A stretch of DNA of 64,000 nucleotides. It comes from a virus (taxonomy: Duplodnaviria > Heunggongvirae > Uroviricota > Caudoviricetes). The stretch spans positions 64,001 through 128,000 of the IMG/VR virus record IMGVR_UViG_3300028666_000024. One strand, given 5' to 3'. Under the pieces are notes generated by a model. It did no database searches and was not told where the DNA came from. It saw nothing but the letters and a program-made list of their open reading frames with translations. Both the position numbers and the translations under genes were made by a program. Positions within the stretch are counted from its first letter, which is position 1. Every line of letters begins with the position of its first letter. Positions 976-45,487 of the stretch are shown piece after piece.

Positions 976-976
976 C

Positions 977-2299
977 TTATTTAACCTGTGTTTGATTTGT
1001 AGTATTTTGATTTATAGCATTTGATGTAATAACTTTAAATAATTCATCAATATTATCAATCAATTGTTTATTCATTTTAACTAATCTTCCATTAACCTCT
1101 ACACCATCACTAAATAATTTTAAATAATTATCCCAAACTGTTTTTCTAATATCTGGTTTAGTGTTTATCTTTTCATATAAAGAAATCATATTTTTATCTC
1201 GTAAATTTCCTCTAAACATATTCATAAAATTTGAATGATCTTTTGTAATTAAATTTCCAATAGATTGTGTTGAACGAGTTTTTTGCATAAGATATTTAAA
1301 AGTAATATATTCGTCTGCTACAAGTTCATAGTTTCTTCCGGGATTTTGACCTTGTGTGTTTTTATAAGCAGTTAGAAAATTAGCAGTATCCGATTCATCA
1401 AATTTAATAGAAACCTTACCTATAATTGATGTTCCATTATCAAATTTTTCTTTTACATAACCAAAAAAATCTTCATTACTAACTCCCATAGAATTTTTTA
1501 TATTTTCTGCGTTAGGTTCTATTCCCTTAGAAAGTAATTCTAAAAATTTTGTGTTAATTTCATCTAAAGAATGTCCATTCATTTCTTTTAAAACCGTATC
1601 AACAATCAAAGAATCTGCTCCCTCAACATCACCACCTTCTAAACGATTTTTCCACGAACAAAAAAGTGTTGCTGTTTTAATCCAATGACCTAATTGAGAA
1701 GCATCTTTCAAAGCATTACCTTCAAAATATTCCAAAGCTTCTTTAGGACCATTCATCTTTGGAATTCTTACTTTAGAAAATTGATAAGCATCATCAAGAG
1801 TTTTAAAAGAAACTGTTATCTTAGTTTTTGTTCCGTATACATCCTGATTTTTTTCAGCATTTCCCAAAACAGCACCAAATACCCTGACACAAATATCAAA
1901 TCCGGGAGAGTAGTATTTATCTACATGAAAACTATTGTTATCTATAGAGGTTGATTTCTCAAGTGCTTTAGTGCTAATCCACTGAGACATATAATCAGAA
2001 AACCCTTGTTTATCCTTTTTCATCGCTGCGTAAATTATTTTATCGTATGGATAAACTTTCTCTGCAAGTGCTACAAGATTATCAATTTTATTCTTAATCT
2101 GATCATAAACCCGTTTTGCATTCTTAATAAAAAAATCAAAAGGATTAATCATCTTCAAAACCCCTTTGATAGCCTTACCTGCAATACCAGAAACAAATGA
2201 GGTTGCTTTACCAGCCTGTTTAGCAATATAATCAACGCCGGAACCATTAAACTCCTGCAACATCTCTTGTTCTCTATAGTATTGTTTGAAATTAGTCAT
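977..2299 (-). CDS. Hypothetical late protein with MTNFKQYY..MLQE N-terminal tag
   Basis: 440-aa ORF directly downstream of late promoter at 2332-2339. Confidence 0.6.
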   Translation of the reverse strand: MTNFKQYYREQEMLQEFNGSGVDYIAKQAGKATSFVSGIAGKAIKGVLKMINPFDFFIKNAKRVYDQIKNKIDNLVALAEKVYPYDKIIYAAMKKDKQGFSDYMSQWISTKALEKSTSIDNNSFHVDKYYSPGFDICVRVFGAVLGNAEKNQDVYGTKTKITVSFKTLDDAYQFSKVRIPKMNGPKEALEYFEGNALKDASQLGHWIKTATLFCSWKNRLEGGDVEGADSLIVDTVLKEMNGHSLDEINTKFLELLSKGIEPNAENIKNSMGVSNEDFFGYVKEKFDNGTSIIGKVSIKFDESDTANFLTAYKNTQGQNPGRNYELVADEYITFKYLMQKTRSTQSIGNLITKDHSNFMNMFRGNLRDKNMISLYEKINTKPDIRKTVWDNYLKLFSDGVEVNGRLVKMNKQLIDNIDELFKVITSNAINQNTTNQTQVK

Positions 2300-2331
2300 A
2301 CTTTATTATCCTCTTATTCATCTTCAGAAAG

Positions 2332-2339
2332 TATTTATA
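2332..2339 (-). promoter_or_regulatory. T4-type late promoter TATAAATA
   Basis: Exact TATAAATA on minus strand, intergenic, about 33 nt upstream of the 2299 start. Confidence 0.8.
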
Positions 2340-2343
2340 AATC

Positions 2344-2994
2344 TTACGAATCAAACTTATCAAAGGTTTTTTCAATAAAAGAACTATGAAAAGTGATATC
2401 ATATCTCAATGTATCTTTCGAATCATAATCTAATTGAATAGGAGTTGAATCTACATAGAATGCATCTTTATATGAAACTCCTAAAACTCTATCTCCAAAA
2501 TCATCATATATATCCACGTTGATACTGCTTATTCTGTTTTGTGTCTGACTTGCATAGTTACCATTATAAAACGGGTTATCATTATCCATTATCAGTTCTT
2601 GTAGATTCTCTATGAGATATGCTATTGTACCTTGATCATCTTCCTCAAGTGTTATATTGATATTATATCCATTAAAATCCATCACAGGAACACCATATGC
2701 ATAGGGTCCAAGTTTTATCTGTTCTACTTTCCAACCATTATTCATAGGCAAAGTACATTTGATAATATGGTAGGGAAGAATTGTATTATTTACAGAATCA
2801 GGAAGACCTTCAAAACTCAAAAGATATGTCCAAGTCTTTTGAACTGTTTTAGAATTTCCAAAGAAACCTTTTAAATTACTATCAATAATTAAAGAGTTTG
2901 GTAAGTTTCTTTGTGATTTTCCTCCACCTACTTTACCCACAATACCATTAACCTTTGATTTTACAAAATTCTTTGTTGTATTAAATAGACTCAT
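2344..2994 (-). CDS. Tail-tube-fold protein (gp19/gp48/gp54 family; likely baseplate-tube initiator)
   Basis: Tube-fold pattern: CTLP.., NITLEEDDQG, VDIYDDFG..V..YKDAF, LDYD...YDITF. Confidence 0.6.
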   Translation of the reverse strand: MSLFNTTKNFVKSKVNGIVGKVGGGKSQRNLPNSLIIDSNLKGFFGNSKTVQKTWTYLLSFEGLPDSVNNTILPYHIIKCTLPMNNGWKVEQIKLGPYAYGVPVMDFNGYNINITLEEDDQGTIAYLIENLQELIMDNDNPFYNGNYASQTQNRISSINVDIYDDFGDRVLGVSYKDAFYVDSTPIQLDYDSKDTLRYDITFHSSFIEKTFDKFDS

Positions 2995-3643
2995 TTATTT
3001 TACCATGTTTCTTTAGTAATTTTCTTTGCTCTTCCATCGTGTGATATTTTCTAATCATTGTTGCATATTCTGGTTCTGAAATATCAATATCTACCTTCTT
3101 TGTTTTATATTTTGAAGGATTTTTTCCTAAATAATTCTTTGTATCATACATTCTCTTCTCATAGTCTATATACTTAATTGATGAAATGTTTATCGGAAGT
3201 TTGTTTATTACATAAATAAGTTTCTCTTTTATTTCATCATCAAGGCCTTCATAATAAAATGCTCCCTCGTCTTGTAAACTCTTAGGATACCTTGAATTCC
3301 ATTGTAAACTAACTTTGAAATATGGTTCTCCTAAACCCAACCTGTTTCCTTCTGCTGTTTTTAAAAAATTTCGAACTGAGTTATGAAATACTCCTCCGGG
3401 CCAAATCAACATATTAGGATCATCTGTTTGCATATCCATAGGAAACATTCTTACACCACCAAACCAATTATCTCCAAAATGAAATGTTGAATATTCACTC
3501 TTTGCAATTCTTATAAACTCATCTTCTGAAGGATTCAAAGCCATTGGAACATTTTCAAAATCTCCATAATCCCCATGTTGAAATATATTTGGAAAGTTTA
3601 CTCGAATCTCTTCCTGTAATTTATAAAAGTTTTTAAAATTCAT
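2981..3643 (-). CDS. Hypothetical protein with MNFKNFYKLQEE N-terminal tag
   Basis: 220-aa ORF; first 12 aa nearly identical to those of ORF 40..975. Confidence 0.6.
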   Translation of the reverse strand: MNFKNFYKLQEEIRVNFPNIFQHGDYGDFENVPMALNPSEDEFIRIAKSEYSTFHFGDNWFGGVRMFPMDMQTDDPNMLIWPGGVFHNSVRNFLKTAEGNRLGLGEPYFKVSLQWNSRYPKSLQDEGAFYYEGLDDEIKEKLIYVINKLPINISSIKYIDYEKRMYDTKNYLGKNPSKYKTKKVDIDISEPEYATMIRKYHTMEEQRKLLKKHGKINESI

Positions 3644-3682
3644 TATGAAACTTTCTGATATCTGTTGAATATTCTGGTTCTA

Positions 3683-4450
3683 TTACCACTTTATCTTTGT
3701 TGCTTTTTGTTCAATGAAACTTGCTCCTGCATTCACAACATTTGAAACCACTGTGTTAGCAAGATCTGTAAAAGTATTTGGAACCAATTCCCAAAAATCA
3801 TAACTAAATCCTATGTTATACTTTATCAAATCTCCACCATCAATATAACTCACACCAACTTCCTGAACCTCTTTCGGCCAACAATTATAAAATACTATTG
3901 ATTTATCTAACTGAATTCCATTATAGGCATACATCATAAGTGTAATACTTGTCATATACTGACTTTTATCGACAACAGAAGTCCCGGAGAATGCTGCTTG
4001 ATTTCTAAATTGTGAGTTTGAAATAATATTCATCCAATCATCCATAAACTTCTTGATTGTTTGTCTCTCAGTTTCTTCATATAAAATATTTAATACATTT
4101 GAGAATTCTGCTCTACCGGGAAGTTTTCTAGTTTGACCATAGAATGATGTTGATATATCACTCATAACTTTAGAAGGTATAGAAGCAGAACGACATTTAA
4201 TTATCAAATCCTCATCTATTAAAACCTTATCAGTATTACCTCCTAAAGTTTGTAAATTTAATCCTCCTAAATAATTTGAAGAATACTTTTGAACGTTCTT
4301 TATAAAATCGTTAGCAATAATAACTTCAAATGTCCAATTCCGTTGAGGATCAGCATAACGGACGGAAAGTCCTTGGCGACTCTCCAATGTTAAATTTTGA
4401 CCTACCAACCCCTTAACACTTGAAAAAGCACTATTGAAACTAAGCGGCAT
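3683..4450 (-). CDS. Tail tube family protein (gp19/gp54-like paralog)
   Basis: CRSASIPS, RKLPGRAEF, NILYEETE, FMDDW, FYNCWPKEV, YNIGFSYDFW: T4 gp19 family motifs. Confidence 0.75.
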   Translation of the reverse strand: MPLSFNSAFSSVKGLVGQNLTLESRQGLSVRYADPQRNWTFEVIIANDFIKNVQKYSSNYLGGLNLQTLGGNTDKVLIDEDLIIKCRSASIPSKVMSDISTSFYGQTRKLPGRAEFSNVLNILYEETERQTIKKFMDDWMNIISNSQFRNQAAFSGTSVVDKSQYMTSITLMMYAYNGIQLDKSIVFYNCWPKEVQEVGVSYIDGGDLIKYNIGFSYDFWELVPNTFTDLANTVVSNVVNAGASFIEQKATKIKW

Positions 4451-4507
4451 CTTGAAAATCCTTTTTAAAATCTTGTACTAAATCTTTAGAAGTAACACCT
4501 TTAGAAG

Positions 4508-4515
4508 TATTTATA
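4508..4515 (-). promoter_or_regulatory. T4-type late promoter TATAAATA
   Basis: Exact motif, intergenic, upstream of the 4450 start. Confidence 0.75.
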
Positions 4516-4720
4516 AAATTATTATATTGCCAATTCTTTGATAATTTTCCACCTCTAAATATAACAAAATCTCTAACAAGTTCTGTAGAAACCTGTCTGT
4601 TTTTCAAAATATATTTTCTCTAATTTTTTGAACTTATTCTTTGATTTTATCTTTTAAATTAATGCAATAATTACACATATTTACATCCTCCGTATGTTGC
4701 CGAGAGTTTAGATTCAAAGA

Positions 4721-4751
4721 GAAAGGACGCTCTCGGAGGTAACGTCCTTTT
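4721..4751. terminator. Intrinsic terminator-like hairpin downstream of the tail tube gene
   Basis: aaaggacg (4722-4729) pairs with cgtccttt (4743-4750); A/T tracts on both sides. Confidence 0.6.
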
Positions 4752-4779
4752 CGGGGATCAGCCTATCTCTTATACTAAT

Positions 4780-5379
4780 TTATAATGTTACAATAGGGTC
4801 GCCGATATTATCAAGTAAATAAAACCAATCAAAGGCGAAGGTTGCATTATATTTAACACTATCATTTCCTCCTGTATAATCTAAATCTACTGCCGCAACA
4901 TTTTGAATAAAACAGTTCTTAAAAAGAATTATTTTCTTTTCAAAGGTTCCATCATATTTCTTTAATTGAAGAACTGCATCTGTTACATATCCTAGAGGAG
5001 TATTTCCGGGACGCTTACCAATCATGTTACTATATCCCTTAGTAATATCAAATATTGATTGAAGCCAATTATAAAAAATACGATATGCATTTTGATTCTC
5101 TGATTCCTCAAAGTTAATTGAAAACGTATTTGAAAATGTTGGTTTGCCCGGAAAAATCTGATGCATTCCACCAAAGAAGCTAGAAATCTGCTCTATTCCT
5201 CTCTCTGGAATCTGAATACTTCTTGCTCTAACTGTCAACTCCTCAACCAAATCAGTTGAGATAGTTTTATCTGCAATAAGATTTGCTACGTTTGGAAAAC
5301 TTATCTCAAACATAAACTGTCTCTGAATATCTTGCATTACAGAAGCAGCACGACCTTCTATTGTAAAATTATTTGTCAT
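4780..5379 (-). CDS. gp19: Tail tube protein
   Basis: RARSIQIPE, IFPGKPTF, INFEESE, FYNWL, FKNCFI.NV..VDLDY, FAFDWF; two genes downstream of the sheath gene. Confidence 0.85.
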   Translation of the reverse strand: MTNNFTIEGRAASVMQDIQRQFMFEISFPNVANLIADKTISTDLVEELTVRARSIQIPERGIEQISSFFGGMHQIFPGKPTFSNTFSINFEESENQNAYRIFYNWLQSIFDITKGYSNMIGKRPGNTPLGYVTDAVLQLKKYDGTFEKKIILFKNCFIQNVAAVDLDYTGGNDSVKYNATFAFDWFYLLDNIGDPIVTL

Positions 5380-5420
5380 ATCTTTTAAACTCCTTTTAAA
5401 CTCTTTGTAAATTTCTTAAA

Positions 5421-5906
5421 TTACTTTTGAACTTGCTTATTAAAGAAATTAATAAATTCTTCAACTTTTTCTTTTGGAATCATAATCCTGCAATGATTGT
5501 TTCCCTTTTCACCTTCTGGTTTATAGAGTCTAAGTTCGAGATCACCACCGGGATATGGATTTACAGATACTTCCTGTTTTCCAGAAGTTCCTTTAGCTTC
5601 AAACTTAAAGACATGTCCAGAAGTTTCATCTGTTGATTCGTCTTCATCATCAAAAAAAGGATCGTCTGGATCATTATCAACACCATAACCTTCATGTTCT
5701 TCACCATAATTCTCAAATAAAAATCTACCAGCGATAAGATAACCTTCATTCTTAGTCTTCTGTTTTGCTTCAAACTCTTTCAACTCTTTTTCAGCTTTTT
5801 TCAATTTTACTCTATAAAACTTTTTAGCTGATTCTAAAACTTTCTTACTTGCAATCTTTTCTTTACAATCATTAATCTCATTTTCAATATATTTCTTATC
5901 TCTCAT
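5421..5906 (-). CDS. Acidic/coiled-coil hypothetical protein between sheath and tube genes
   Basis: 161-aa ORF with RBS; contains IAGRFLFE motif. Confidence 0.6.
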   Translation of the reverse strand: MRDKKYIENEINDCKEKIASKKVLESAKKFYRVKLKKAEKELKEFEAKQKTKNEGYLIAGRFLFENYGEEHEGYGVDNDPDDPFFDDEDESTDETSGHVFKFEAKGTSGKQEVSVNPYPGGDLELRLYKPEGEKGNNHCRIMIPKEKVEEFINFFNKQVQK

Positions 5907-5923
5907 TTTAATATTCCTTTTCG

Positions 5924-7786
5924 TTATACAAGTTCAACAATACTAACACCACTTTGTTCAATGATGGTTTTCAGGGTAATAAACTCAATAACCTTAGTTG
6001 GTTGAACATAGATATCTACCATCAACTGATTATTATTCACAACATCAGGAGTATTATTTGAGGCATCACAAACAACCTTATAACCTGTCAATCCTCCTCC
6101 AGCAGTAACATCACCAAGGAAACTTGACACCAAACTCGAAATTCTCTGTTGAGTTCTGGAAGTGTTAAGTTCAAACAAGAAATCCTGAAGCATCGGTTCA
6201 ATACTATTCTCAAGATAAATCAAAAGTCTTCGAACATTAATTCTATCAAGAGCGGTGGCCTTCAACTGAGCAGTCTTTTGACCCCACATAACAGAACCAA
6301 CTCCCGGAACAACAAGACTTGTGTTGATGTTTCTGTCATACAAATATCCAATATCTGCCTTATCAAGAGTAAACTTCTGAGCATAACTTGAAATAATACC
6401 GCGAGTAGTTCCAGCAGGAGCATCCCAAGTATTAGCAACATTATCTGTTCTTGCCATGATAGCAGCACCAAAAGCAGCCTTCGGCAACCACAACCATTTA
6501 CTATTGAAAGTATCTCTTACCTTATCAAAACCAGCATACAATGCCATATAGGAAGGATTAGTATAACCATATTGTTCATCCTGCCAAATTAATTGAGCAG
6601 TGTTGTGATTAGATTGATTTGTTCCTGTCTGTCCAGTTGCAATACAATCCATTCTCTTTGTTGCAATTCCACCAACCTGTTGTTTTACTTGAGTATTCCA
6701 ATCAGCATTGATAAGAATATTCACTCCCGGAAGTTTGGAACGACTTGCAAAAATATTCCAAGCGTTTGTAACGTCATTTCCCATACCAGTTCCGCTTGTA
6801 GACAAAGAACCACCACTAAGAGGAATCAAGTTGAATGCTCTTAGATTAGGAACAGAGTCAACAAGACCAGAGGTAGGACATGTATTTATAGCACCATTAT
6901 TCTTAATATAAATCCAATTTGAAACACCATTTATAACTGTTGTAATATTTAATTGATTTCCATTAACATCAAGTTGATCTCCAAGGGTTCCATAAAAGGT
7001 TTCAACTGGTTGTAAAAGACTTGTTAAATCTGTAGCACTGGTAGTTGCTGAAGTAGCTTGTAAACCAGAAATATTTGCTGAAATAGTTGACCAGTTCTGT
7101 GACTGTTGTTTTAGATAAACATCAATCCTCATAACCTTTGCTGCAATAGGAAGTGCTGAAGTAGCAAGAGTATATGCAGAAAGTGGAGCACCTGCTGAAA
7201 TAGTAGTATCATCATACTTATATAACCAATCAGAAGCACTTGTCGCTGTCTGAATAGAAACTGCAATATTATTTCCATCAAGTCCCGGATATAAAGCAGC
7301 AATACAAAAGTCACCCGGAGGAACTGCCGCGCTTGTCTCGATAGAAGAAATATTATCTGGAGTATCAAACTGTCCTCCTAAAATAAAAGGAGTTGATGGA
7401 ATTCCAGAAGTTGTACAAGCAGATAGTGTAGTAGCACTCAAGAAATCATATCCAGACATATTTACATATAATGCAGCATACTTGTCACTTGGATCACAGG
7501 CTCTTGCAACATAAAGATTATTTGACTCATTCAAAAACTGCAACGCTGCGTACATTCCATATCCATACTCAGGGACATCAGGATTACCAGAAGCACCACT
7601 TGTATAAACTGGATTTCCAAAAGTATTAACCAAATCTTGATCCGAAGTCACAAGAACTGGGCTATTAATCGGTCCTCGAATTGAACGAACAACTACTCCA
7701 CCAACGGATGTTCCGGCAGGTTGAAGTATATTTGATTGATCTATTTCTTGTCTCTGAACTCCGGGTGTTGACATTTTCTGTGCCAT
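5924..7786 (-). CDS. gp18: Tail sheath protein
   Basis: STPGVQRQEID N-terminus; W.APAG..RG; WGQKT....TALDRINVRRLLIYLE; DIYVQPTKVIEFI. Confidence 0.95.
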   Translation of the reverse strand: MAQKMSTPGVQRQEIDQSNILQPAGTSVGGVVVRSIRGPINSPVLVTSDQDLVNTFGNPVYTSGASGNPDVPEYGYGMYAALQFLNESNNLYVARACDPSDKYAALYVNMSGYDFLSATTLSACTTSGIPSTPFILGGQFDTPDNISSIETSAAVPPGDFCIAALYPGLDGNNIAVSIQTATSASDWLYKYDDTTISAGAPLSAYTLATSALPIAAKVMRIDVYLKQQSQNWSTISANISGLQATSATTSATDLTSLLQPVETFYGTLGDQLDVNGNQLNITTVINGVSNWIYIKNNGAINTCPTSGLVDSVPNLRAFNLIPLSGGSLSTSGTGMGNDVTNAWNIFASRSKLPGVNILINADWNTQVKQQVGGIATKRMDCIATGQTGTNQSNHNTAQLIWQDEQYGYTNPSYMALYAGFDKVRDTFNSKWLWLPKAAFGAAIMARTDNVANTWDAPAGTTRGIISSYAQKFTLDKADIGYLYDRNINTSLVVPGVGSVMWGQKTAQLKATALDRINVRRLLIYLENSIEPMLQDFLFELNTSRTQQRISSLVSSFLGDVTAGGGLTGYKVVCDASNNTPDVVNNNQLMVDIYVQPTKVIEFITLKTIIEQSGVSIVELV

Positions 7787-7826
7787 CTATTTATCTCCTT
7801 CAAAAATTTTCAAATCTTCCTAAAAG

Positions 7827-7834
7827 TATTTATA
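7827..7834 (-). promoter_or_regulatory. T4-type late promoter (sheath operon)
   Basis: Exact TATAAATA upstream of gp18. Confidence 0.8.
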
Positions 7835-7883
7835 ATCTTAACAATTTAAAAATTGAAATTTACAACTAAACCATTTTTCAAAC

Positions 7884-7891
7884 TATTTATA
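7884..7891 (-). promoter_or_regulatory. Second T4-type late promoter, back-to-back with an early promoter
   Basis: Exact TATAAATA in the divergent intergenic region. Confidence 0.65.
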
Positions 7892-7898
7892 ATTCTTC

Positions 7899-7927
7899 TT
7901 GCATTCTTTCCCGGCATGATATATATT
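7899..7927 (+). promoter_or_regulatory. Sigma70-type early promoter, class A
   Basis: TTGCAT-17 nt (contains CCGGCATG)-TATATT; architecture recurs at 12755, 12842, 20048. Confidence 0.7.
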
Positions 7928-7970
7928 TAAAATAACAATGATAATTTAACCAACTTTTAGGAGATTCAAT

Positions 7971-8159
7971 ATGGCGGCGAAGACCTTTAAATGTGTTGGA
8001 TGTGAAAGAGAAGTTATTGTTCCTGCTGAGTTTCATACTTACGGGGATAGTGCCTGTGCTACCCGTTATTGCTCGGAAGAGTGTTTCAATGACTCTATGG
8101 CTGGAGTTCTATCTATCTCGAAGCACAAGGCCTGTGGGGAGTTCTATTTTGAAGATTAA
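7971..8159 (+). CDS. Small Cys-rich (Zn-finger/TRASH-like) protein
   Basis: 62 aa, CxxC..C..YCSEEC; strong RBS (AGGAG) and own promoter. Confidence 0.7.
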   Translation: MAAKTFKCVGCEREVIVPAEFHTYGDSACATRYCSEECFNDSMAGVLSISKHKACGEFYFED

Positions 8160-8173
8160 AACTGGAACTCCTC

Positions 8174-9757
8174 TTAATAGTCAAAGAAAACAGCATCATT
8201 ATAATTCTCGTCTTCTTCTTTATCTTTCTTTTCAATATTTTCATCAAACACAGAATCCTCATCAAAATCATCAAGATATTCATTTGTCTTAGTATAAAAT
8301 AATCCCCAATTGAGAGAAGTAACACAATCATCAAATGCATTCCTTTTTGATCCTTTTGCTGCGTATCTTCCTATTCCAACCTCCTCATACTGTGAAAGTT
8401 CTGTAATTGTGTCTTTATCATAAATCTTTAACCATCCCTTTTCGATATATCTCTTGAGGAGTGTGTTTGCTTCTGCCTTTGTCATTGGTCCCGAACGAAC
8501 TCCCAATCCTCCCTTGTTGTATCTTTTACCATCAATACCAATAGGTTGATAGGTAATGATTCCTTCCCACTCATATTCGATCCAAAGCATTGTCAAAACT
8601 ATTCCTCCAACATCTGCGTTATTTTCAATCATTGCAGGAGCCATATTATAAAAATTTGAAACATCTATAATAACCTTTGCAAAATCATAAGGAGATATTG
8701 TATTACTTCTGTATACTGCTACCTGTTCTATATCAAGACGACTTTTAATTTTTAGAACCTGAATCACTGAATAGTTTGACTCCTGTTTTCCACCACCTGC
8801 TGCAACATCAACACCAAGAACATACTTAGCATTATCTACAGGATTCTCCCAAATTTTCATCACACCATTCCACTTATAATCAATTGGAGGCATAAACTTC
8901 ATCTTTTCTAAAATATCTTGATCAACCATCGTGTTGTTTGCTCCAACAAAACGACAATCAAACTCCTGCATGAATTGAATTTCACCATATGGAAGAGATT
9001 TTATTGTTCTCTTCTTCCAATCTTCATCCCTTCCCGGAACTTCTGTCCAAAGAATCTTGATTGGATAATAATTATTTTCTCCTCGAACAGCATTAATCCA
9101 TAGATCATAAAACATTTCTTGTCCGTTTGGAGTTGAAAGTATAATAACCTTTGATTTCTTTCCTGAAGATATTGTAGGAATCACAGCACTCATAAAACTC
9201 TTCTGCATATTCTGATCCACGAAAGCAAACTCATCAAGTAACAATGTTGAGAATGATAAACCTCTGACCGCTGTTGAGGATGTTGAAAAGGCATATAATG
9301 AACTTCCATTTTCTAAAATAATATCTTTTTTGTTCCATTCAACTATTCCTTGTTGTAACCACATGGGAAGAGCTTCATAAGCACTTTTAATTTTGTCAAG
9401 AATTTCAACAGAAATCATTTCTTTATTTGCAAGAATTGCCGCTACATGATCTTTGTTGAATAAAATAGTATGAAGTAAATTTAGAGATATCATAGCTGTC
9501 TTACCAATCTGACGTGATGCTAATATGATAACATGTTGTTTGTCCTCCGGAGGTTCTTTACAAACCTTTAGAACTTTCTTTTGATAATCTCTTAAAGGTA
9601 TTAAAATCTTTCCATAATCAATTGTAATGATATAGAAATACTTCTCAGCGAAATAACAAATATCCTCGGCACACTTAACATACTCCTCAAGCATTTCTTT
9701 TGTATAAGTTACTTCCTGACCCTTACCCCTCAACTTCTTATTACCCATGAACGCCAT
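8174..9757 (-). CDS. gp17: Terminase large subunit
   Basis: SRQIGKT Walker A, LLLDEFAF Walker B, STPNG, FMQEFDC.F, GVDVA nuclease motif. Confidence 0.95.
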   Translation of the reverse strand: MAFMGNKKLRGKGQEVTYTKEMLEEYVKCAEDICYFAEKYFYIITIDYGKILIPLRDYQKKVLKVCKEPPEDKQHVIILASRQIGKTAMISLNLLHTILFNKDHVAAILANKEMISVEILDKIKSAYEALPMWLQQGIVEWNKKDIILENGSSLYAFSTSSTAVRGLSFSTLLLDEFAFVDQNMQKSFMSAVIPTISSGKKSKVIILSTPNGQEMFYDLWINAVRGENNYYPIKILWTEVPGRDEDWKKRTIKSLPYGEIQFMQEFDCRFVGANNTMVDQDILEKMKFMPPIDYKWNGVMKIWENPVDNAKYVLGVDVAAGGGKQESNYSVIQVLKIKSRLDIEQVAVYRSNTISPYDFAKVIIDVSNFYNMAPAMIENNADVGGIVLTMLWIEYEWEGIITYQPIGIDGKRYNKGGLGVRSGPMTKAEANTLLKRYIEKGWLKIYDKDTITELSQYEEVGIGRYAAKGSKRNAFDDCVTSLNWGLFYTKTNEYLDDFDEDSVFDENIEKKDKEEDENYNDAVFFDY

Positions 9758-16800: not shown

Positions 16801-18125
16801 ATCCATGTAATTTGCCATTCTTTAGGAAAGTTGTTTATATAATTGATATTAGAATGATCTTCAGGATTTGGTTTAAATTTTCCTTTTAAAACCTTTGTTA
16901 CAAAATATTTAAAAAGTTTTAACTGATCTTCTGAAATTTGAAAATCAGCAACTGGTCTGCGTTCTCTTTCTGGTCTTGGTTCTTGATTGGTAATATAATC
17001 ATCATCGTCATTGTATTCTTCACTCGAACCTAATATATTTCTTGATGTTTCTCTTGGTATTAAATCTTTTCTCGTATCATAACTATCTCTTTGTGGAGGA
17101 AGATTATCGTTGTCAGGTATATCTTCAACCTTATCGGCAGAGTGACCAAACAAATCCTTATAAGCAGCATAGAAGGCCGGTTGAATTTGTGGAGAACACC
17201 ACGGAATTAACTTCTGATATGAAATTGGTTTTGTTTCATCTTTCTCATAAACAAATTCTGAGTTTCTGTGTTTATCATATGTCTTTATATATTCTCCTTC
17301 TGCATTTTTTAGAGGTATTTTATTACCATAAATATCTCTTTTATATGGATGTGAAATATCCGCTTTCAAATCTATAAGAGTGCTACTAACATGAACACCT
17401 CTCCATTTAGTTAATATAGATCCATTATTATGCTCAATATCAACAACATGGTCTATTGCTCCATATATTTCTCTACTCTTTTCATCTAATTCAAACTTCT
17501 TATAAGCAGACTCCATAGCCATCCAAGCATCAGCGATATCCTTCCACGCCTTACCACCATATGAATACTCCATAGCCGCGATATCCTTCCACGCCTTACC
17601 ACCATATGAAGAATGCCACATATTATATCTTTGTGAAAAAGCTACTTTACAAAAATATACAAAGTCTGAAGGATTAAACCCACTAATATGAGAAATTACC
17701 TTCCATCTTATTTCATATCTATTACCTTCTGCATTTAATCTTTGTAAACTATAACCATCTTCATCTGGATTTATAGCATTTGCAAGTTTTTCAAACATAT
17801 TTTTAAGATATTCATTTTTTTCTAAAAATTCTTCTTGTAAAGATGTATCATAAAATGCTTGAAAATGAACAATTTCACAAGCACATGCCCGGAGAACTGC
17901 TTCATTCAAAAATTTATAAAGACCTTTGATTATCTGTTTGTTTGCATATTCCAAAGAAAATCCCAATTCTTCATCCCTTAAATCTTTGAATGCATCTGCG
18001 TCTGTCTTGTGAACGGAGAACATTGCATAGAAGTCGGCAACAAGTTGGTTAGGATCTTTAGGAATTCTATAATCAAAATTAAATCCTTCTTTTAAAACAC
18101 TTTTATAAAAATCTGAAAATTTCAT
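13857..18125 (-). CDS. Giant tagged protein (about 1422 aa) with 11 KOW/SH3-like repeats in the C-terminal half
   Basis: Start MKFSDFY overlaps the gp15 stop (TAATG); repeated (F/I/L)K(I/V)GD.V.(I/V) units. Confidence 0.7.
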   Translation of the reverse strand: MKFSDFYKSVLKEGFNFDYRIPKDPNQLVADFYAMFSVHKTDADAFKDLRDEELGFSLEYANKQIIKGLYKFLNEAVLRACACEIVHFQAFYDTSLQEEFLEKNEYLKNMFEKLANAINPDEDGYSLQRLNAEGNRYEIRWKVISHISGFNPSDFVYFCKVAFSQRYNMWHSSYGGKAWKDIAAMEYSYGGKAWKDIADAWMAMESAYKKFELDEKSREIYGAIDHVVDIEHNNGSILTKWRGVHVSSTLIDLKADISHPYKRDIYGNKIPLKNAEGEYIKTYDKHRNSEFVYEKDETKPISYQKLIPWCSPQIQPAFYAAYKDLFGHSADKVEDIPDNDNLPPQRDSYDTRKDLIPRETSRNILGSSEEYNDDDDYITNQEPRPERERRPVADFQISEDQLKLFKYFVTKVLKGKFKPNPEDHSNINYINNFPKEWQITWIGAKLPLDLETLAKNCASKSDSIWFIFSALTEINAYKVFLYIAEDMLNNPENSKEVKNKTKIIISCVKYFIKNGKTKKGDYLDKLIKTTKSFNGHQMLCCKSIESLYKNKKIKIEKILDSALKIYKTQEQPVILKSMINLRNKLLADLDGEIMKGDYVYIKSAPELNNEAQKMVDSISEVKYVDEEFIKIYTLDKKSSVLLKKENLQVVKKGKFSNVFANALKVGDVVEIVTTKDGHKGDICKIIKVDMQDRKLPYKIMYTYKLENWYGFNDVKKTDKPFEEKKDYDGNMHGFKFGDITLKIGDIIEVVKKFTEDSKTFRVGEQAKIIYMGSNQGSGIEIEWDKEVWTDGSKNFVIGVNFLTPEYFKIVKKSSEENSKTFKIGDKVKIIGKTVSGIDKIGEIGTIENYSDYPHSDTYWVVVGDNPHSYLFPKNSIEKIKDEEEDSKKIKIGDFVQIVGPDDKDNTLYIGGEGRVGLIFLDKNLYQVTLTSAVLKLFPKESLKVIGNELEKGIKAGDTVKILHTTRNSYKVGEEYEVKEVYSTNGKFTNYEVWNKEKTKTSTFYPTQVKKVEKNQEGKKKDTRIPIDSSYKFPIGIEVGDTIEVMKDFIKNGFVYKKGETGIVRTADSTGSKNLITVSWNKKVANVADKNLRKMSLISAPYFGLGFLRLDDSLKLKEKFKIGDKVNIIGNNIYNTKDDYLGKWGKIQTIPSTSVGRKIYTIGLYKLKRSLDTNDYFDEYGSYYGKSLELIKDEDIPVEKKEERKFKSGDFVECIKTIGSVKRGDTGVIISVYSTVCWVDWVSSMSGYIGYDKIKKIEKKIENKTGEKKKENFKIGDRIEVIKDFIESGIVFNIGMKGTVKKIQEMYMTIEWDDENKLFHQYSSITKPYHGFNIFSDTYKCLKLINKEGSSKEEDSKKIENKTGEKKKENFKIGDNVRIIGPNIEGVTSFIGETGDITALHGDIATIQNYPIGFEVEFLKNLY
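14003..14354. repeat. 58-bp direct repeat (14003-14060 and 14297-14354), in frame
   Basis: Encodes KKIENKTGEKKKENFKIGD twice, 294 bp apart. Confidence 0.9.
17533..17610. repeat. 33-bp perfect direct repeat (17533-17565 and 17578-17610)
   Basis: Encodes SYGGKAWKDIA twice; 45-bp period keeps the frame. Confidence 0.9.
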
Positions 18126-18961
18126 TATGCTAAGTTCTCCCCTTGAAACCACTCGTAAGATAAATTACTATTTAGATTTGTTCCACTCAAATTAAAATCT
18201 CCCGGTGTCAAACTTCCAGATAAAGGAACATCATCAGATAAAAGAACACCAGATAATCCTATACTATCTATTTCTGAATTATTTATAAAATATCTCGTAT
18301 TGATTACTTGTATAATACTTGCTGGACTCCAAGGACGATACACAACAGCTTCAACAGTCAATGGTAAATCTAAATTAATTTGTCTGTAATCATTCTCACC
18401 GATATCTTCTGTAATCCTTGGACTGATACTATCAATATTTACCGGAAAAGTTCTTTCAATATTTAAAAAACTAAACTCCTTAACCCTCAACTGAAGTTTT
18501 GGATTGAAATAAGGAAGAATATTTTCCAACAATTGAAACATAGACTCATATGAATCTGTTCTGATATATAACATAAAATTCAAATTGTATGGAGCAGGTT
18601 GAATATCTTTCATAATTTCACCAACACTATTTCCATCTACTCCTACTGTATCAGTCAACCACTCTCTTGTAGCTTCGACAGATGTTGCTCGGTCAGGGGC
18701 ATATGTCACTCCCTGAAAACATAATGCCATTCTCGGAAGTTTGATATAGAATCTTTGACCGTGCTCCTGATTATTTTTGTCAAAGTAATGATTCTGAAGC
18801 AACCACTGATATTCTTTCTCAGGTTGGTTTGCCATGATAGGAACTTCAACTGGATTTCCAACAGGATTTCCAGTTTTATCATATGTCTTTACAATCAAAT
18901 TTTTAAAAGTGTTTAATAAAGATTCTGTAATATTATACATCGTTCTAGGGTAATAATACAT
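18125..18961 (-). CDS. gp15: Tail terminator / sheath stabiliser
   Basis: YYY..T..N....L..F..L.V, VEVPI, LPRMAL, PAPYNLNF.L, FQLLENILPYFNP pattern of T4 gp15. Confidence 0.8.
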   Translation of the reverse strand: MYYYPRTMYNITESLLNTFKNLIVKTYDKTGNPVGNPVEVPIMANQPEKEYQWLLQNHYFDKNNQEHGQRFYIKLPRMALCFQGVTYAPDRATSVEATREWLTDTVGVDGNSVGEIMKDIQPAPYNLNFMLYIRTDSYESMFQLLENILPYFNPKLQLRVKEFSFLNIERTFPVNIDSISPRITEDIGENDYRQINLDLPLTVEAVVYRPWSPASIIQVINTRYFINNSEIDSIGLSGVLLSDDVPLSGSLTPGDFNLSGTNLNSNLSYEWFQGENLA

Positions 18962-18974
18962 TAGTTCAACTCCG

Positions 18975-19466
18975 TTATGGTCTGTTCCTTAAAAAATCAA
19001 TAAGTTCTTCCATTTGATATTCAGTTTCAAACTCTTCTGAATCAAGAGTTTCATAATTCTTTGAAAGCCAATCAACTCTTACCTTAAATGCTCCTGTCTT
19101 TTCAACCTCATACTTCTGGTCATATGTAATAGGATTAACCAAAGATATAATTAAAAATTTACCTTGATCTACTGTTCGAGCTCTTATTGCTCCTGTCTCT
19201 CCCATAAATGCAACCATATATCCCGAACCACTTCCCGGATCGTTATAATAACCTTTTGGAACTTCATATTTAAAAACCCTACTAATAATTCTATGATCAT
19301 TATTAACCATTATACAAGTTCCATCAGAAAGAACATATTCAGCTAAATCAATTCCATCAACAACATCAAAAATTTCTTTTGCACGTTTTTCAAGTTGAAC
19401 CGGATAATCTTGATCAGTAACTTTTAAAACTTTTGAAGCTTCATTATAAAATTTTTGAAATCTCAT
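18975..19466 (-). CDS. Tagged hypothetical protein (MRFQKFYNE start)
   Basis: Likely start at ATG 19466, matching the shared N-terminal tag. Confidence 0.55.
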   Translation of the reverse strand: MRFQKFYNEASKVLKVTDQDYPVQLEKRAKEIFDVVDGIDLAEYVLSDGTCIMVNNDHRIISRVFKYEVPKGYYNDPGSGSGYMVAFMGETGAIRARTVDQGKFLIISLVNPITYDQKYEVEKTGAFKVRVDWLSKNYETLDSEEFETEYQMEELIDFLRNRP

Positions 19467-41911: not shown

Positions 41912-42034
41912 ATGAAAATTAAACCATTAAGAATACCTCTTCCAAAACAAATTGAAAAACCTTTTAAAGATAAGAATAAATATTCAAGGAACCCGAAGCA
42001 TAAGAAAGACTTTGTAAAATATGCAAAAGACTGA
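41912..42034 (+). CDS. 40-aa highly basic peptide (not in ORF track)
   Basis: MKIKPLRIPLPKQIEKPFKDKNKYSRNPKHKKDFVKYAKD; first ORF after the promoter. Confidence 0.55.
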   Translation: MKIKPLRIPLPKQIEKPFKDKNKYSRNPKHKKDFVKYAKD

Positions 42035-42650
42035 TTTTAAACCATTTCAAAGAATTAAATTTCTTGAAGAAATAGAATATAAATATTCTAACCCTACAGG
42101 AACTATTACTGGTAAATATATTCCTATAAACTCTACAGGAACTATTATTGGTATAGATAATTCTTATGGTGTTGATTTACTGGTTGAAATGGATGAACCT
42201 ATCGTCTGCGGCCATGATTTTACAGCAATTAAAAATTGGAAATCCTTTTTAAAACGACCCTGTAAACCTAATTGTGGAATTTGGATATTAGATAAAGAAT
42301 TAGATATATTTAATATTCAAATAATTGATGAAAATTATTCTAAATATAGATTTAAAACTCTTGATAAAATAAGAATTGAAAAGGATCATGAACTTATTCC
42401 AAAGGGTTCTGTCGGAGTTATTCTCTATATTGATCCAGATGGAAGTATGGCCGTTGAATGGGAAAATATATCGGACGGTCATGAATTTTTAAAAAACAAA
42501 GATCTTATTCGTCGTTGTAAGAAAAATCACGGCAGATGGATAAATACCGAAAGTGATCCTAAAATTTTAAAATTTGTAAAGATTTTTTCAAAGGCGGAAG
42601 TTCCACTTATACTATCAAAAAGAAGAAGATTCTTTTTTGATGAGGAATAA
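42021..42650 (+). CDS. Protein with two KOW/SH3-like repeats
   Basis: FK...RI.F...GTIIGID..LLVEMDE and FK..DKI.I...PKGSVGVI..AVEWE. Confidence 0.6.
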   Translation: MQKTDFKPFQRIKFLEEIEYKYSNPTGTITGKYIPINSTGTIIGIDNSYGVDLLVEMDEPIVCGHDFTAIKNWKSFLKRPCKPNCGIWILDKELDIFNIQIIDENYSKYRFKTLDKIRIEKDHELIPKGSVGVILYIDPDGSMAVEWENISDGHEFLKNKDLIRRCKKNHGRWINTESDPKILKFVKIFSKAEVPLILSKRRRFFFDEE

Positions 42651-42660
42651 AGGGGGAGTT

Positions 42661-42825
42661 ATGATCAGATATAGTCCGGTAGTAGACAGCAGTGGTAACT
42701 TTTGTAAATGTATTCCAAGTGTGAGTGGTAAATATTACCTTGCTTCAGAAGTCGATGTCGAAATAGCAAGGTTGAGGGAGAAATGTAATTTATTAAAAAC
42801 AAGACTGGAATCATTTTATGACTGA
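42661..42825 (+). CDS. Small hypothetical protein
   Basis: GGGGAG RBS before ATG 42661. Confidence 0.5.
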   Translation: MIRYSPVVDSSGNFCKCIPSVSGKYYLASEVDVEIARLREKCNLLKTRLESFYD

Positions 42826-43069
42826 TATAAAAATAATAAACGATACAAAAAGTTTAGTTGGTATTCGAATAGAAATGGTAACAATTTTTGTTTCAAGAAG
42901 AAAAGTTGGTCGTGTTTTAAAATACATAACCAATGCTGGTATAGAATGGAAGCGTCAAGGTATAACACAGTTTCCTGATGATTATAAGATTTTTCACTTC
43001 TCTGTACCAACAAATTATGTGGATGAAACACATTCTATCTTAATTACAGTGTGGGAAAACCAAAAATGA
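42818..43069 (+). CDS. Hypothetical protein
   Basis: 83-aa ORF coupled to its neighbours. Confidence 0.5.
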   Translation: MTDIKIINDTKSLVGIRIEMVTIFVSRRKVGRVLKYITNAGIEWKRQGITQFPDDYKIFHFSVPTNYVDETHSILITVWENQK

Positions 43070-43569
43070 TAACATCCAGAGATTTTGCAATTCAAGCACA
43101 TAGCAATCAGATGTATGGAGATAAACCATATTCTGTTCATCTTGAAAATGTTGTCGAAGTTTTACAAAGATTTAAAATGCTTGATGAATATCCAGAACTT
43201 GAGGCTGCTGGTTGGTTACATGACACGATTGAGGATTGTCATATCAATTTTACAGATATTCGAAAAGAATTTGGAACTGATATTGCCGAGATAGTATATT
43301 GTGTTACAGATGAACTCGGTAGAAGTCGAAGGGAACGACATATGAAAACTTATCCCAAAACAGCGGGAAATAAAAGAGCAGTAATTTTAAAATTTGCTGA
43401 TAGAATTGCAAACGTTGAATATTCTATTACAACAAAGAATTTTAAAAAATTTCAAATGTATTATAAAGAATTTCCAATTTTCTCAGGATTTTTCAAAGAC
43501 TTCGAAATAATTTATACAATGCATCAACATTTAAAAGAACTCTTAGAAACTCAGATGAAGGAGATATAA
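43066..43569 (+). CDS. Small alarmone hydrolase-like HD protein (RelA/SpoT hydrolase, Mesh1 type)
   Basis: FA..AH.NQ..GDKPY..H, AAGWLHDTIED, VTDE, KFADRIAN. Confidence 0.85.
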   Translation: MITSRDFAIQAHSNQMYGDKPYSVHLENVVEVLQRFKMLDEYPELEAAGWLHDTIEDCHINFTDIRKEFGTDIAEIVYCVTDELGRSRRERHMKTYPKTAGNKRAVILKFADRIANVEYSITTKNFKKFQMYYKEFPIFSGFFKDFEIIYTMHQHLKELLETQMKEI

Positions 43570-43572
43570 AAG

Positions 43573-44700
43573 ATGGCAACAGGTTTTTATCCCGGTTCTT
43601 TTGATCCAATTACAAACGGACATTTGGATATTATTGAGAGGGCAATTCCTTTCTTTGATAAGGTTATTATTGGGATTGGTTCAAATTCAGGTAAGGCCGG
43701 GACATTCTCTATTAATCATCGTATACAACTTGCTGAAGAGGCATTACGAAAGTTTGGAGATAAAATTAAGGTTATATCTTTCTCAGGACTCTCTGTTGAT
43801 TATGTTTACATTAATAATCTTGTAATGATTCGTGGATTACGGGATGGAATGGATTTTGAATATGAGAAGGCTGTTCATGATGCAAATTATTCTCAGCGGA
43901 AATTTGAATGTATTAATTTCTTTACCAATCCTGAAGTTGCTGGTGTTTCAAGTTCTATCGTAAAAGAAATGCAGAAACATCAAGGTAATATCCTGAAGTA
44001 TGTTCCTATGAATGTCAAGGTTGCATTGGAATGTGTTGTCTCTAAACGACTTATTGTCGGCCTGACTGGTTATATCGGAGCAGGAAAAACATATGTTGGT
44101 AAACTCCTCGGAAACCAGATTGAATTAGATCAGATAGGTAGAGATCTTCTTTGCACCGATACAAGACCTTTTGCTGTTAATATGAGAAACCAACTTTGGA
44201 ATGAATTAAATTTAAAATCTATTATTGGAATGAAGAGACCTGATAATTATAATTTCATCGACCCAAAAGTTATCTCTGGTGTTATCTTTAAAAACAAAGA
44301 ATTTATGAATATTTACAATGAAATTACAAAGGAACCAATTCTTTGTGAAATGTATCAACAATTACGAAAGATGAATGGAATTGTTTATATCAACAGCGCA
44401 ATCTTGGTTGAAGGAGGACTCTTACCGATATGTAACAATACATTTGTCTTTGTCACTGCACCGGTAGAATTAAATATTAAGAGATTGGTTGAGAGAGGTT
44501 ACAGTGAAGAAGATATTATAAACAGGGCAGAGACACAGATGAGTGGAGTAGATAAGGTCGATGCTATCACGAAGGCTGTTGAAAGAGATAATTTCGGAGA
44601 GATTTTTTATATAAATAATAATGAAGATGGAACACTCAACATCCAAATAACAGAACTTAAAGTTAAACTTAATAAAAGGTATAACCAATATGAGTTATAA
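43573..44700 (+). CDS. coaD: Fused phosphopantetheine adenylyltransferase (CoaD) and dephospho-CoA kinase (CoaE)
   Basis: N-half FYPGSFDPITNGHLDIIERA, IRGLRDGMDFEYE, VSSSIVKE; C-half IVGLTGYIGAGKTYV, VIFKN, FVTAPVE..IKRLVER..SEE.I..R..TQM. Confidence 0.9.
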   Translation: MATGFYPGSFDPITNGHLDIIERAIPFFDKVIIGIGSNSGKAGTFSINHRIQLAEEALRKFGDKIKVISFSGLSVDYVYINNLVMIRGLRDGMDFEYEKAVHDANYSQRKFECINFFTNPEVAGVSSSIVKEMQKHQGNILKYVPMNVKVALECVVSKRLIVGLTGYIGAGKTYVGKLLGNQIELDQIGRDLLCTDTRPFAVNMRNQLWNELNLKSIIGMKRPDNYNFIDPKVISGVIFKNKEFMNIYNEITKEPILCEMYQQLRKMNGIVYINSAILVEGGLLPICNNTFVFVTAPVELNIKRLVERGYSEEDIINRAETQMSGVDKVDAITKAVERDNFGEIFYINNNEDGTLNIQITELKVKLNKRYNQYEL

Positions 44701-45313
44701 TTTTCTTCAAAACCCTGATAATTTTTTGAATGCTGTTAGTTTAATGATAGATGCTTATATGCAACCTCAATCTGTTATGATTTATAACCAGATTGAAGAT
44801 GCTTATATGCAACCTCATAGAAAATATCATGATTCTGAACATATTCAAGAAGGTTTAGACCTGATTAATAAATATTCAAAACTTTTTACAAATCTTCCTG
44901 AAGTCTATTATGCTTGGTATTTTCATGACTTTGTTTATATGCCGGGAAGTAAGGTAAATGAAATTGCAAGTGCTGATGCTGCTGAAGTCTATGCTCATTA
45001 TCTAAATCTGTCTGAAGAACAAATTAAAATCATTAAAGGTCTTATTCTCAACACAAACACAGAGGATGAAAAACTCCTGCATGATATTGATTTTAGTATT
45101 TTGGCAAAAGAAGAGACACGATATAATAGATATGTTGAAGATGTTTCAAAAGAATATTTCTTCAAGGATAAATCACTCAGAGCAAATTTTTTAATTTTTA
45201 CGCTTGCAGACGATAAGATTTTTCTTTCAAAACATTTTCATAAATTATTTGAAAAGAAGGCTCGAAAGAATCTTGAAAAAGAATTAGAAAAGTATCAAAC
45301 GACAGTAAAGTAA
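44690..45313 (+). CDS. Predicted metal-dependent HD-superfamily hydrolase (COG4339-like)
   Basis: Y.QPHRKYHD.EHI, AWYFHDFVY....VNE..SA, LLHDIDFSILA, Y..YV..V.KEY. Confidence 0.75.
   Translation: MSYNFLQNPDNFLNAVSLMIDAYMQPQSVMIYNQIEDAYMQPHRKYHDSEHIQEGLDLINKYSKLFTNLPEVYYAWYFHDFVYMPGSKVNEIASADAAEVYAHYLNLSEEQIKIIKGLILNTNTEDEKLLHDIDFSILAKEETRYNRYVEDVSKEYFFKDKSLRANFLIFTLADDKIFLSKHFHKLFEKKARKNLEKELEKYQTTVK
44750..44817. repeat. 20-bp direct repeat (44750-44769 and 44798-44817), in frame
   Basis: GATGCTTATATGCAACCTCA twice, DAYMQP duplicated. Confidence 0.85.
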
Positions 45314-45326
45314 TATTGACGATAAC

Positions 45327-45403
45327 GCTCCCGTAGCTCAGTTGAATAGAGCAAGAAACTTCTAATTTCTAGGTCACAGGTTTAAATCCTGTCGGGAGTA
45401 CCA
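45327..45403 (+). tRNA. tRNA-Arg (UCU)
   Basis: Full cloverleaf, anticodon TCT at 45361-45363, encoded CCA; T-loop TTTAAAT. Confidence 0.9.
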
Positions 45404-45409
45404 ATTTAC

Positions 45410-45487
45410 AGAGGTATAGTTCAATTGGTTAGAACGCTTGGTTTTGAGCCAAGATGTTTGAGGGTTCGAATCCTTCTACCTCTGCCA
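45410..45487 (+). tRNA. tRNA-Gln (UUG)
   Basis: AGAGGTA/TACCTCT acceptor stem, CTTGG/CCAAG anticodon stem, anticodon TTG at 45444-45446, TTCGAAT, G73, CCA. Confidence 0.85.

Follow-up and report, generated by a model that had tools for sequence, protein, structure and literature searches.

A phage CoaD-CoaE fusion and its COG4339-type HD neighbour as a probable coenzyme A completion module

A probable coenzyme A completion module in a T4-like phage

Analysis of a 64,000-nucleotide stretch of viral DNA (positions 64,001 to 128,000 of IMG/VR record IMGVR_UViG_3300028666_000024; hereafter the window) identified a 375-aa open reading frame (ORF) in which CoaD, phosphopantetheine adenylyltransferase (PPAT), is joined to CoaE, dephospho-CoA kinase (DPCK), and which is followed by a gene for a 207-aa HD protein of the COG4339 type. 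The fusion gene and the downstream HD gene together occupy positions 43573-45313 (window positions are used throughout), and they are probably a phage copy of a conserved three-component unit for the completion or salvage of coenzyme A (CoA), in which 4'-phosphopantetheine is converted to dephospho-CoA and then to CoA. The observations on which this interpretation is built are domain identities, catalytic motifs, operon coupling and the conservation of the CoaD-CoaE-HD triad.

The fusion lies between two HD-type genes, the upstream one encoding a RelA/SpoT-type small alarmone hydrolase (SAH), and the three genes form a translationally coupled series. The fusion ATG is 9 nt downstream of an AAGGAG Shine-Dalgarno sequence that is itself still part of the SAH coding sequence, in its final codons, and the fusion stop and the start of the downstream HD gene overlap by 11 nt. 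A previous reading of this DNA from its letters and ORFs (the sequence-only reading) had proposed such tight coupling, and the internal Shine-Dalgarno sequence and the overlap bear it out. Domain searches of the phage genome found no CoaB/C, PanK-III, acyl carrier protein (ACP), phosphopantetheinyl transferase (PPTase) or AcpH, and therefore only the last two steps of CoA synthesis are encoded, in agreement with the earlier description of the fusion as a minimal pair.

The fusion protein combines bacterial-type CoaD with a divergent CoaE

Profile and residue comparisons confirmed the ORF as a predicted bacterial-type PPAT joined to a predicted DPCK, both intact. The CoaD half (residues 4-152) scored 137.3 bits on the equivalog model TIGR01510 (cut-off 103.3), was 39% identical to E. 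coli CoaD over the full E. coli length in a pairwise alignment, and matched PPATs in the PDB at E 1e-29, all of them bacterial. Residues S9, H17 (in TNGH), K41, R87, R90, D94, Y97 and S126-S128 align with E. coli CoaD T10, H18, K42, R88, R91, D95, Y98 and S128-S130, whose roles are known from PPAT structures, and the CoaD catalytic residues varied little or not at all across the 37 members of a family alignment. The CoaE half (residues 160-335) scored 52.9 bits on Pfam PF01121 (cut-off 27), aligned to E. coli CoaE with an hhalign probability of 99.3%, and matched solved DPCKs in the PDB that include the DPCK domain of mouse COASY (2f6r). Its P-loop GLTGYIGAGKT (G163-K172-T173), D186 and the lid residues R308, R318 and Q322 align with E. 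coli CoaE and were likewise invariant or nearly so in the 37-member alignment. Solved PPAT and DPCK structures were the only PDB matches of the fusion. The scores above the TIGR01510 and PF01121 thresholds and the retained catalytic residues uphold the earlier claim that neither half is degraded.

Bacterial CoaD (PPAT, EC 2.7.7.3) and CoaE (DPCK, EC 2.7.1.24) share their folds and catalytic residues with the phage fusion but are monofunctional proteins, whereas the phage enzyme is a single, phage-borne polypeptide that is coupled to an HD hydrolase and has a divergent CoaE half. Eukaryotic COASY, on the other hand, has the same two activities in the same N- to C-terminal order, and its DPCK part is matched through 2f6r over residues 138-330 of the fusion. 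The COASY type of PPAT is absent, the N-terminal half matching only bacterial PPATs and TIGR01510. Membership of the eukaryotic COASY family was ruled out, as the PPAT half is bacterial in kind and the COASY match is confined to the kinase half. Judged by these matches, the phage PPAT-DPCK is an independent fusion and an analogue of COASY, not a relative.

Conservation of the CoaD-CoaE-HD triad

An HD homologue adjoins or overlaps the fusion gene in the loci that we numbered L001, L002, L007, L009, L012, L017, L094, L109 and L110. In the phage-like 166-kb contig L001 it lies upstream of the fusion (E 9e-16), and in the bacterial contigs L002 (E 5e-26) and L007 (E 6e-22) it overlaps or adjoins the fusion gene. 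Among the best 149 representatives of the fusion family at 50% identity, 128 had the CoaD-CoaE architecture and 20 were CoaD-CoaE-HD triple fusions; other architectures among the protein-search matches were CoaD-HD fusions (7) and CoaE-CoaD (2). Gene order and fusion state vary, as expected of functional rather than historical linkage. When the neighbours of 131 HD loci were clustered, CoaD or CoaD-CoaE was the sole family that recurred across unrelated loci, and CoaD was found within 5 kb in 20 of the 52 viral HD loci; in 7 of the 80 cellular ones it immediately preceded the HD gene. The sequence-only reading had placed the downstream HD gene in the module, and the synteny and gene fusions seen here support the COG4339-type HD protein, as recognised by sequence, as a real and conserved third component. 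The bacterial-type PPAT-DPCK fusion recurs as an independent analogue of COASY.

Two other settings of the fusion differ in their neighbours. On the Logan contig that carries P0003, a 211-aa gene overlaps the start of a 409-aa CoaD-CoaE fusion, and nearby are NUDIX, AAA ATPase and DUF350 genes, a gene resembling phosphoribosyl pyrophosphate (PRPP) synthetase and a weak NAD-kinase match, a region that resembles a cofactor/nucleotide island. In the bacterial lineage of L003-L005 (5060-7143), a CoaD-CoaE fusion (P0016) stands immediately after a Ser/Thr protein kinase gene and before an aminotransferase gene, with no HD gene; the P0016 fusion is present on more than 20 contigs.

The COG4339-type HD protein has a phosphodiesterase-like predicted fold

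The 207-aa HD protein had no Pfam or NCBIfam match, its sole annotation match being phrog_19425 'phosphohydrolase', and a single-sequence word search retrieved only 2 relatives. A profile was therefore required, and the family profile built from syntenic homologues retrieved at least 1,474 clusters, of whose members, where annotated, many are called 'predicted metal-dependent HD superfamily phosphohydrolase'. Several public records instead name members of this family 'N-methyl-D-aspartate receptor NMDAR2C subunit', an evident error that has spread through bacterial and archaeal metagenome-assembled genomes (MAGs). Literature searches returned nothing relevant on COG4339.

Residues H47, H51, H79, D80, D132 and D134 were invariant in a 43-sequence alignment of the family. 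Pfam HD (PF01966) gave no match for the window protein and weak matches in 6 of the 43 family members (best E 0.001), and membership of the HD superfamily is suggested because of the predicted fold and not because of a Pfam match. The AlphaFold (AF2) model is all-helical with a pLDDT of 89. A VIA-align search of 48,161 PDB representatives placed at the top 17 catalytic domains of class-I cyclic-nucleotide phosphodiesterases (PDEs) together with the orphan HD hydrolase 2pq7 (Z 13-15.2, about 200 of 207 residues aligned), followed by YpgQ (Z 11.5), YedJ (10.6) and, at 9 or less, SAH, YqeK (7.0) and SpoT; the caution that applies to VIA-align on helical proteins applies to this ranking also, which was nevertheless consistent. 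Foldseek against PDB and Swiss-Prot models gave only E ~1e-2, the VIA-align result being clearer, and PDB sequence searches with the protein or the family profile found nothing significant (best YedJ, E 0.21). On the model, the fold of the HD protein is thus closest to the class-I PDEs, well above other HD families. Membership of the PDEase_I sequence family was ruled out by the lack of a PF00233 match even at E<=1, and that of AcpH by an hhalign probability of 0.2% against E. coli AcpH and no PF04336 match in the phage genome.

The metal-ligand pattern of the class-I PDE catalytic domain is similar to the motif of the HD family (H-[DN]-x-x-H ... HD ... D). The phage protein is, in contrast, some 100 residues shorter, has no sequence match to PDEs, and its genomic partners suggest substrates related to CoA and not cAMP or cGMP. 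A further parallel is found in Firmicutes, in which the nucleotidyltransferase gene nadD stands beside yqeK, a gene for an HD-domain Ap4A hydrolase. As in the phage module, a cofactor adenylyltransferase of the same superfamily is there paired with a small HD hydrolase, but YqeK is only a distant structural match of the phage protein and the pair belongs to another cofactor pathway. Complex prediction for the fusion and the HD protein scored 0.00, a result that weighs neither for nor against binding.

The module in other viruses and its link to NAD+ salvage genes

The window belongs to an IMG/VR record of 169,231 bp that has direct terminal repeats and encodes a gp23-type capsid. The phage is an uncultured, T4-like soil phage whose UvsW protein is at most 34% identical to the UvsW of cyanophages and Methylophilales phages. 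No phage record matched the 5.2-kb region by megablast, and no close relative is known. The only sequencing run listed with this DNA is a rhizosphere metagenome, probably the sample of origin, and no RNA run is listed. In the same record, adjacent minus-strand genes (record positions 16919-19456; 420-1808 and 1884-2957 in locus L215) encode Nampt (462 aa; NAMPT_N and NAPRTase) and NMNAT-Nudix (357 aa), approximately 47 kb before the start of the window and approximately 90 kb from the CoA module. By their domain content these two genes are a NARP2-type NAD+ salvage pair.

Among the IMG/VR loci that were fetched, with duplicates removed by hand, 32 had CoaD only, 18 CoaD and CoaE, 11 CoaD, CoaE and HD, 9 CoaD and HD, and 32 HD only. 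Of the 29 complete CoaD+CoaE loci, 8 had Nampt and/or NMNAT-Nudix genes no more than 5 kb away, versus 4 of the 73 others (Fisher p=0.004). One locus, L056 (IMGVR_UViG_3300002026_000046), interleaves the two pathways on one strand, with NADAR, an ORF of unknown function, NMNAT-Nudix, CoaE, an SAH-like HD_4 protein, CoaD, a GIY-YIG homing endonuclease and Nampt at 752-9132, and in L076 the order is NMNAT-Nudix, nuclease, CoaE, COG4339-HD, VG64 and CoaD. Gp23-type capsids were present in at least 3 other fusion-bearing records (L011, L012 and L016), and annotated CoaD genes are found in Caulobacter, Brevundimonas, Microcystis and Lak phages, with stand-alone CoaD in cultured jumbo phages. Members of the HD family accompany CoaD in the Brevundimonas and Caulobacter jumbo phages.

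The tree of fusion proteins, in which six rows are partial CoaD-only fragments and branches are long, had at least two well-supported clades in which copies from phages and from cells are intermingled; phage copies are not monophyletic and therefore have no single phage origin. The tree names neither donor nor direction of transfer.

Cellular copies

The cassette is also found in cells and is therefore not specific to phages. Two large Verrucomicrobiota MAGs encode the HD-linked CoaD as a second copy, in addition to a canonical CoaD and a separate CoaE. In three other MAGs, from Saccharibacteria, Methanosarcinales and a gammaproteobacterium (1 Mb), the HD-linked CoaD is the sole bacterial-type copy. 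No carrier-protein domain was found in the three small genomes with a CoaD-linked HD gene, MAGs that may be incomplete, and true AcpH is also encoded in 2 of the 5 genomes with HD. The Methanosarcinales contig (L156, 3709-5552) carries a bacterial-type CoaD-CoaE fusion and HD gene where an archaeal-type PPAT and DPCK would be expected; this copy could be the result of horizontal transfer, a provirus or a binning error.

Proposed function and competing explanations

In the mechanism that we infer, the CoaD half would adenylylate 4'-phosphopantetheine to dephospho-CoA and the CoaE half would phosphorylate the 3'-OH of dephospho-CoA to give CoA, both steps using two ATP in all. An infected cell could in this way produce or regenerate CoA from 4'-phosphopantetheine independently of the earlier steps of the pathway. 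The HD protein would be a metal-dependent hydrolase whose core resembles that of phosphodiesterases, and its substrate would most likely belong to the nucleotide part of CoA turnover or, alternatively, be a related phosphodiester. Its reaction may be hydrolysis of the 3'-O-P bond on an adenine nucleotide of CoA turnover; 3',5'-ADP is the leading candidate because PDEs and SpoT-type enzymes cleave that bond and because this nucleotide is the co-product of CoA splitting or of phosphopantetheine-arm transfer. This substrate, chemically plausible given the modelled fold, is put forward tentatively and on balance doubted, because most members of the family have no CoA link. For the phage, the purpose would be a CoA pool that is kept or restored during infection, in parallel to the NAD+ salvage pair.

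Several observations speak against this interpretation. Most HD-family loci are not beside CoA genes (73 of 80 cellular and 32 of 52 viral), and the role of the family may therefore be wider or of another kind; in L006, the nearest relative of the window, the downstream ORF is not an HD gene. Several large IMG/VR records carry the provirus label and may include cellular sequence, which leaves their viral status uncertain. The PPAT reaction is reversible, and given this reversibility a unit in which synthesis and a hydrolase are fused could have a regulatory or catabolic role. The CoaE half reached only 38.3 bits on the equivalog TIGR00152 (cut-off 65.55), so that it is best described as a divergent CoaE whose family membership is supported by sequence and whose exact functional equivalence is not certified by the model.

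This divergence, together with the status of the HD-linked CoaD as a separate paralogue in large genomes, would also suit a role outside the CoA pool, in which dephospho-CoA is supplied as a non-canonical initiating nucleotide in the 5' capping of RNA or the CoaD and CoaE paralogues use another phosphorylated substrate, with the HD protein active in decapping or turnover. We consider such a role very improbable. The CoaD half has an equivalog-level score and all of the compared phosphopantetheine- and ATP-site residues, the catalytic Asp, P-loop and lid residues of CoaE are conserved, and a CoaE fused to CoaD would consume dephospho-CoA instead of accumulating it. Another explanation makes the HD protein the supplier of the CoaD substrate. 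AcpH, which is close to the HD protein in size, is a non-canonical HD-family phosphodiesterase, and a functional analogue of it could strip 4'-phosphopantetheine from host holo-ACPs, so that fatty-acid synthesis stops and the arm feeds CoaD-CoaE. The phosphodiesterase-like fold is compatible with this, and an enzyme that produces the CoaD substrate would be a logical fusion partner of CoaD. An AcpH-like role is nevertheless distinctly unlikely, because similarity to AcpH was undetectable, because true AcpH co-occurs with the HD protein, and because carrier-protein domains were lacking in the small genomes, within the limits set by MAG completeness.

The sequence-only reading had favoured an anti-defence role by analogy with NAD+ reconstitution. 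Phage NARP1 and NARP2 (Nampt and Nmnat) have been shown experimentally to act in rescue from NAD+-depleting defences (10.1101/2024.02.11.579819; PMC13464706). As in those pathways, the CoA module has phage-encoded last steps that would rebuild an adenine-containing cofactor from a breakdown product, but the cofactor and the enzymes are different, and for CoA no depleting defence and no rescue are known from the literature searched. By this analogy, an undiscovered immune effector or toxin would cleave CoA to 4'-phosphopantetheine and 3',5'-ADP, after which the fusion would rebuild CoA and the HD protein would remove the inhibitory 3',5'-ADP. Circumstantial support for the analogy came from the NARP2-type pair in the same genome, the proximity of complete CoaD+CoaE loci to Nampt and NMNAT-Nudix genes and the interleaved NAD and CoA genes of L056. 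Additionally, viral loci show HD-CoaD linkage more often than cellular ones do, large bacterial genomes have the HD-linked CoaD over and above a housekeeping CoaD, and the triad exactly fits the recycling of both halves of cleaved CoA, its PDE-like fold being of a kind that cleaves 3'-O-P bonds. The anti-defence role itself is speculative. The searched literature contained no CoA depletion or cleavage in phage defence, and the NARP papers do not mention CoA; in small-genome organisms the module supplies the sole bacterial-type CoaD/CoaE, which resembles plain salvage, and genes for general cofactor supply would equally be expected to cluster with NAD salvage. We therefore regard counter-defence as unlikely, because no CoA-depleting defence is known and because general cofactor supply explains the same data.

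Whichever purpose applies, the probable CoA completion and salvage unit gives context to genes that have so far been entries in lists. In snow viromes, coaD and coaE were listed with NAMPT and nadM among the viral auxiliary genes of high abundance, and their purpose was called 'not entirely known' (PMC11097641). That report has separate coaD and coaE entries and no mechanism; the fusion, the HD protein and the NAD linkage are not described there, and the same three features were described nowhere in the literature searched. Viral coaD and coaE can now be tied into a conserved three-part module, which in large phages is physically linked to NAD+ salvage genes of the kind known to defeat NAD+-depleting immunity. 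For the orphan HD family this association is a first functional clue, with 20 independent triple-fusion clusters behind it, and even under plain cofactor supply the HD protein would likely be a missing step of CoA or phosphopantetheine turnover in many bacteria. If counter-defence were true, a function would be assigned to an orphan family of at least 1,474 clusters and CoA depletion would be predicted as an abortive-infection strategy. Whether phages must defend their CoA pool, and whether there is a CoA-targeting defence, are questions that can now be tested.

Locus organisation and the upstream hydrolase

The module lies in a tightly packed plus-strand block that comprises three ORFs that are small or of unknown function (42021-43069), the HD_4 gene (SAH), the fusion gene, the 207-aa HD gene and two tRNA genes (Table 1). 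A scan of the operon for promoters and terminators found nothing beyond shuffled background. The tRNA-Arg(TCT) and tRNA-Gln(TTG) genes probably share a transcript with the SAH and CoA genes.

Table 1. Coordinates of the CoA module and its neighbouring features in the window
Feature	Position	Strand	Evidence and remarks
RelA/SpoT-type small alarmone hydrolase (SAH), predicted, 172 aa	43051-43569	+	PF13328, TIGR00691 hydrolase region, PDB matches
AAGGAG Shine-Dalgarno of the fusion gene	43558-43563	+	Within the 3' end of the SAH gene; direct sequence reading
CoaD-CoaE fusion (predicted bacterial-type PPAT, then DPCK), 375 aa	43573-44700	+	Domain profiles, E. coli alignments, PDB matches
CoaD domain, residues 4-153	43582-44031	+	TIGR01510, identity to E. 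coli CoaD, PDB PPAT matches
CoaE domain, residues 160-335	44050-44577	+	PF01121, hhalign to E. coli CoaE, PDB DPCK matches
COG4339-type HD phosphohydrolase (predicted), class-I-PDE-like fold, 207 aa	44690-45313	+	phrog_19425, family profile, AF2 model, VIA-align
tRNA-Arg (TCT)	45327-45403	+	ARAGORN; 14 nt after the HD gene
tRNA-Gln (TTG), last of the plus-strand block	45410-45487	+	ARAGORN
UvsW helicase gene, convergent	end at 45528	opposite to block	UvsW domains

The upstream 172-aa protein scored 40.4 bits on PF13328 (cut-off 27.2), has an LHDTIED motif (LHD-x-IED) in its translation, and found its best PDB matches in Lmo0812, MESH1, Rel hydrolase domains and characterised SAHs. SAH homologues were found in 196 phage records, and in one other locus only, L056, did an SAH (35% identity) occur together with CoA genes. 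The SAH was rejected as a conserved member of the module on account of this single other co-occurrence, and the gene neighbourhood proposed by the sequence-only reading, with an HD hydrolase on either side of the fusion, thus stood in part: across unrelated loci the COG4339-type HD protein recurs with CoaD or CoaD-CoaE and the SAH does not. Because its co-occurrence with CoA genes is limited to L056, the SAH is treated as an independent gene, most likely a stringent-response or toxSAS-related one that shares the transcript.

The first ORF of the plus-strand block (42021-42650, 209 aa) gave weak SH3-like and DUF4314 matches, and its product ends in RRRFFFDEE, a basic patch followed by FFF and an acidic tail.

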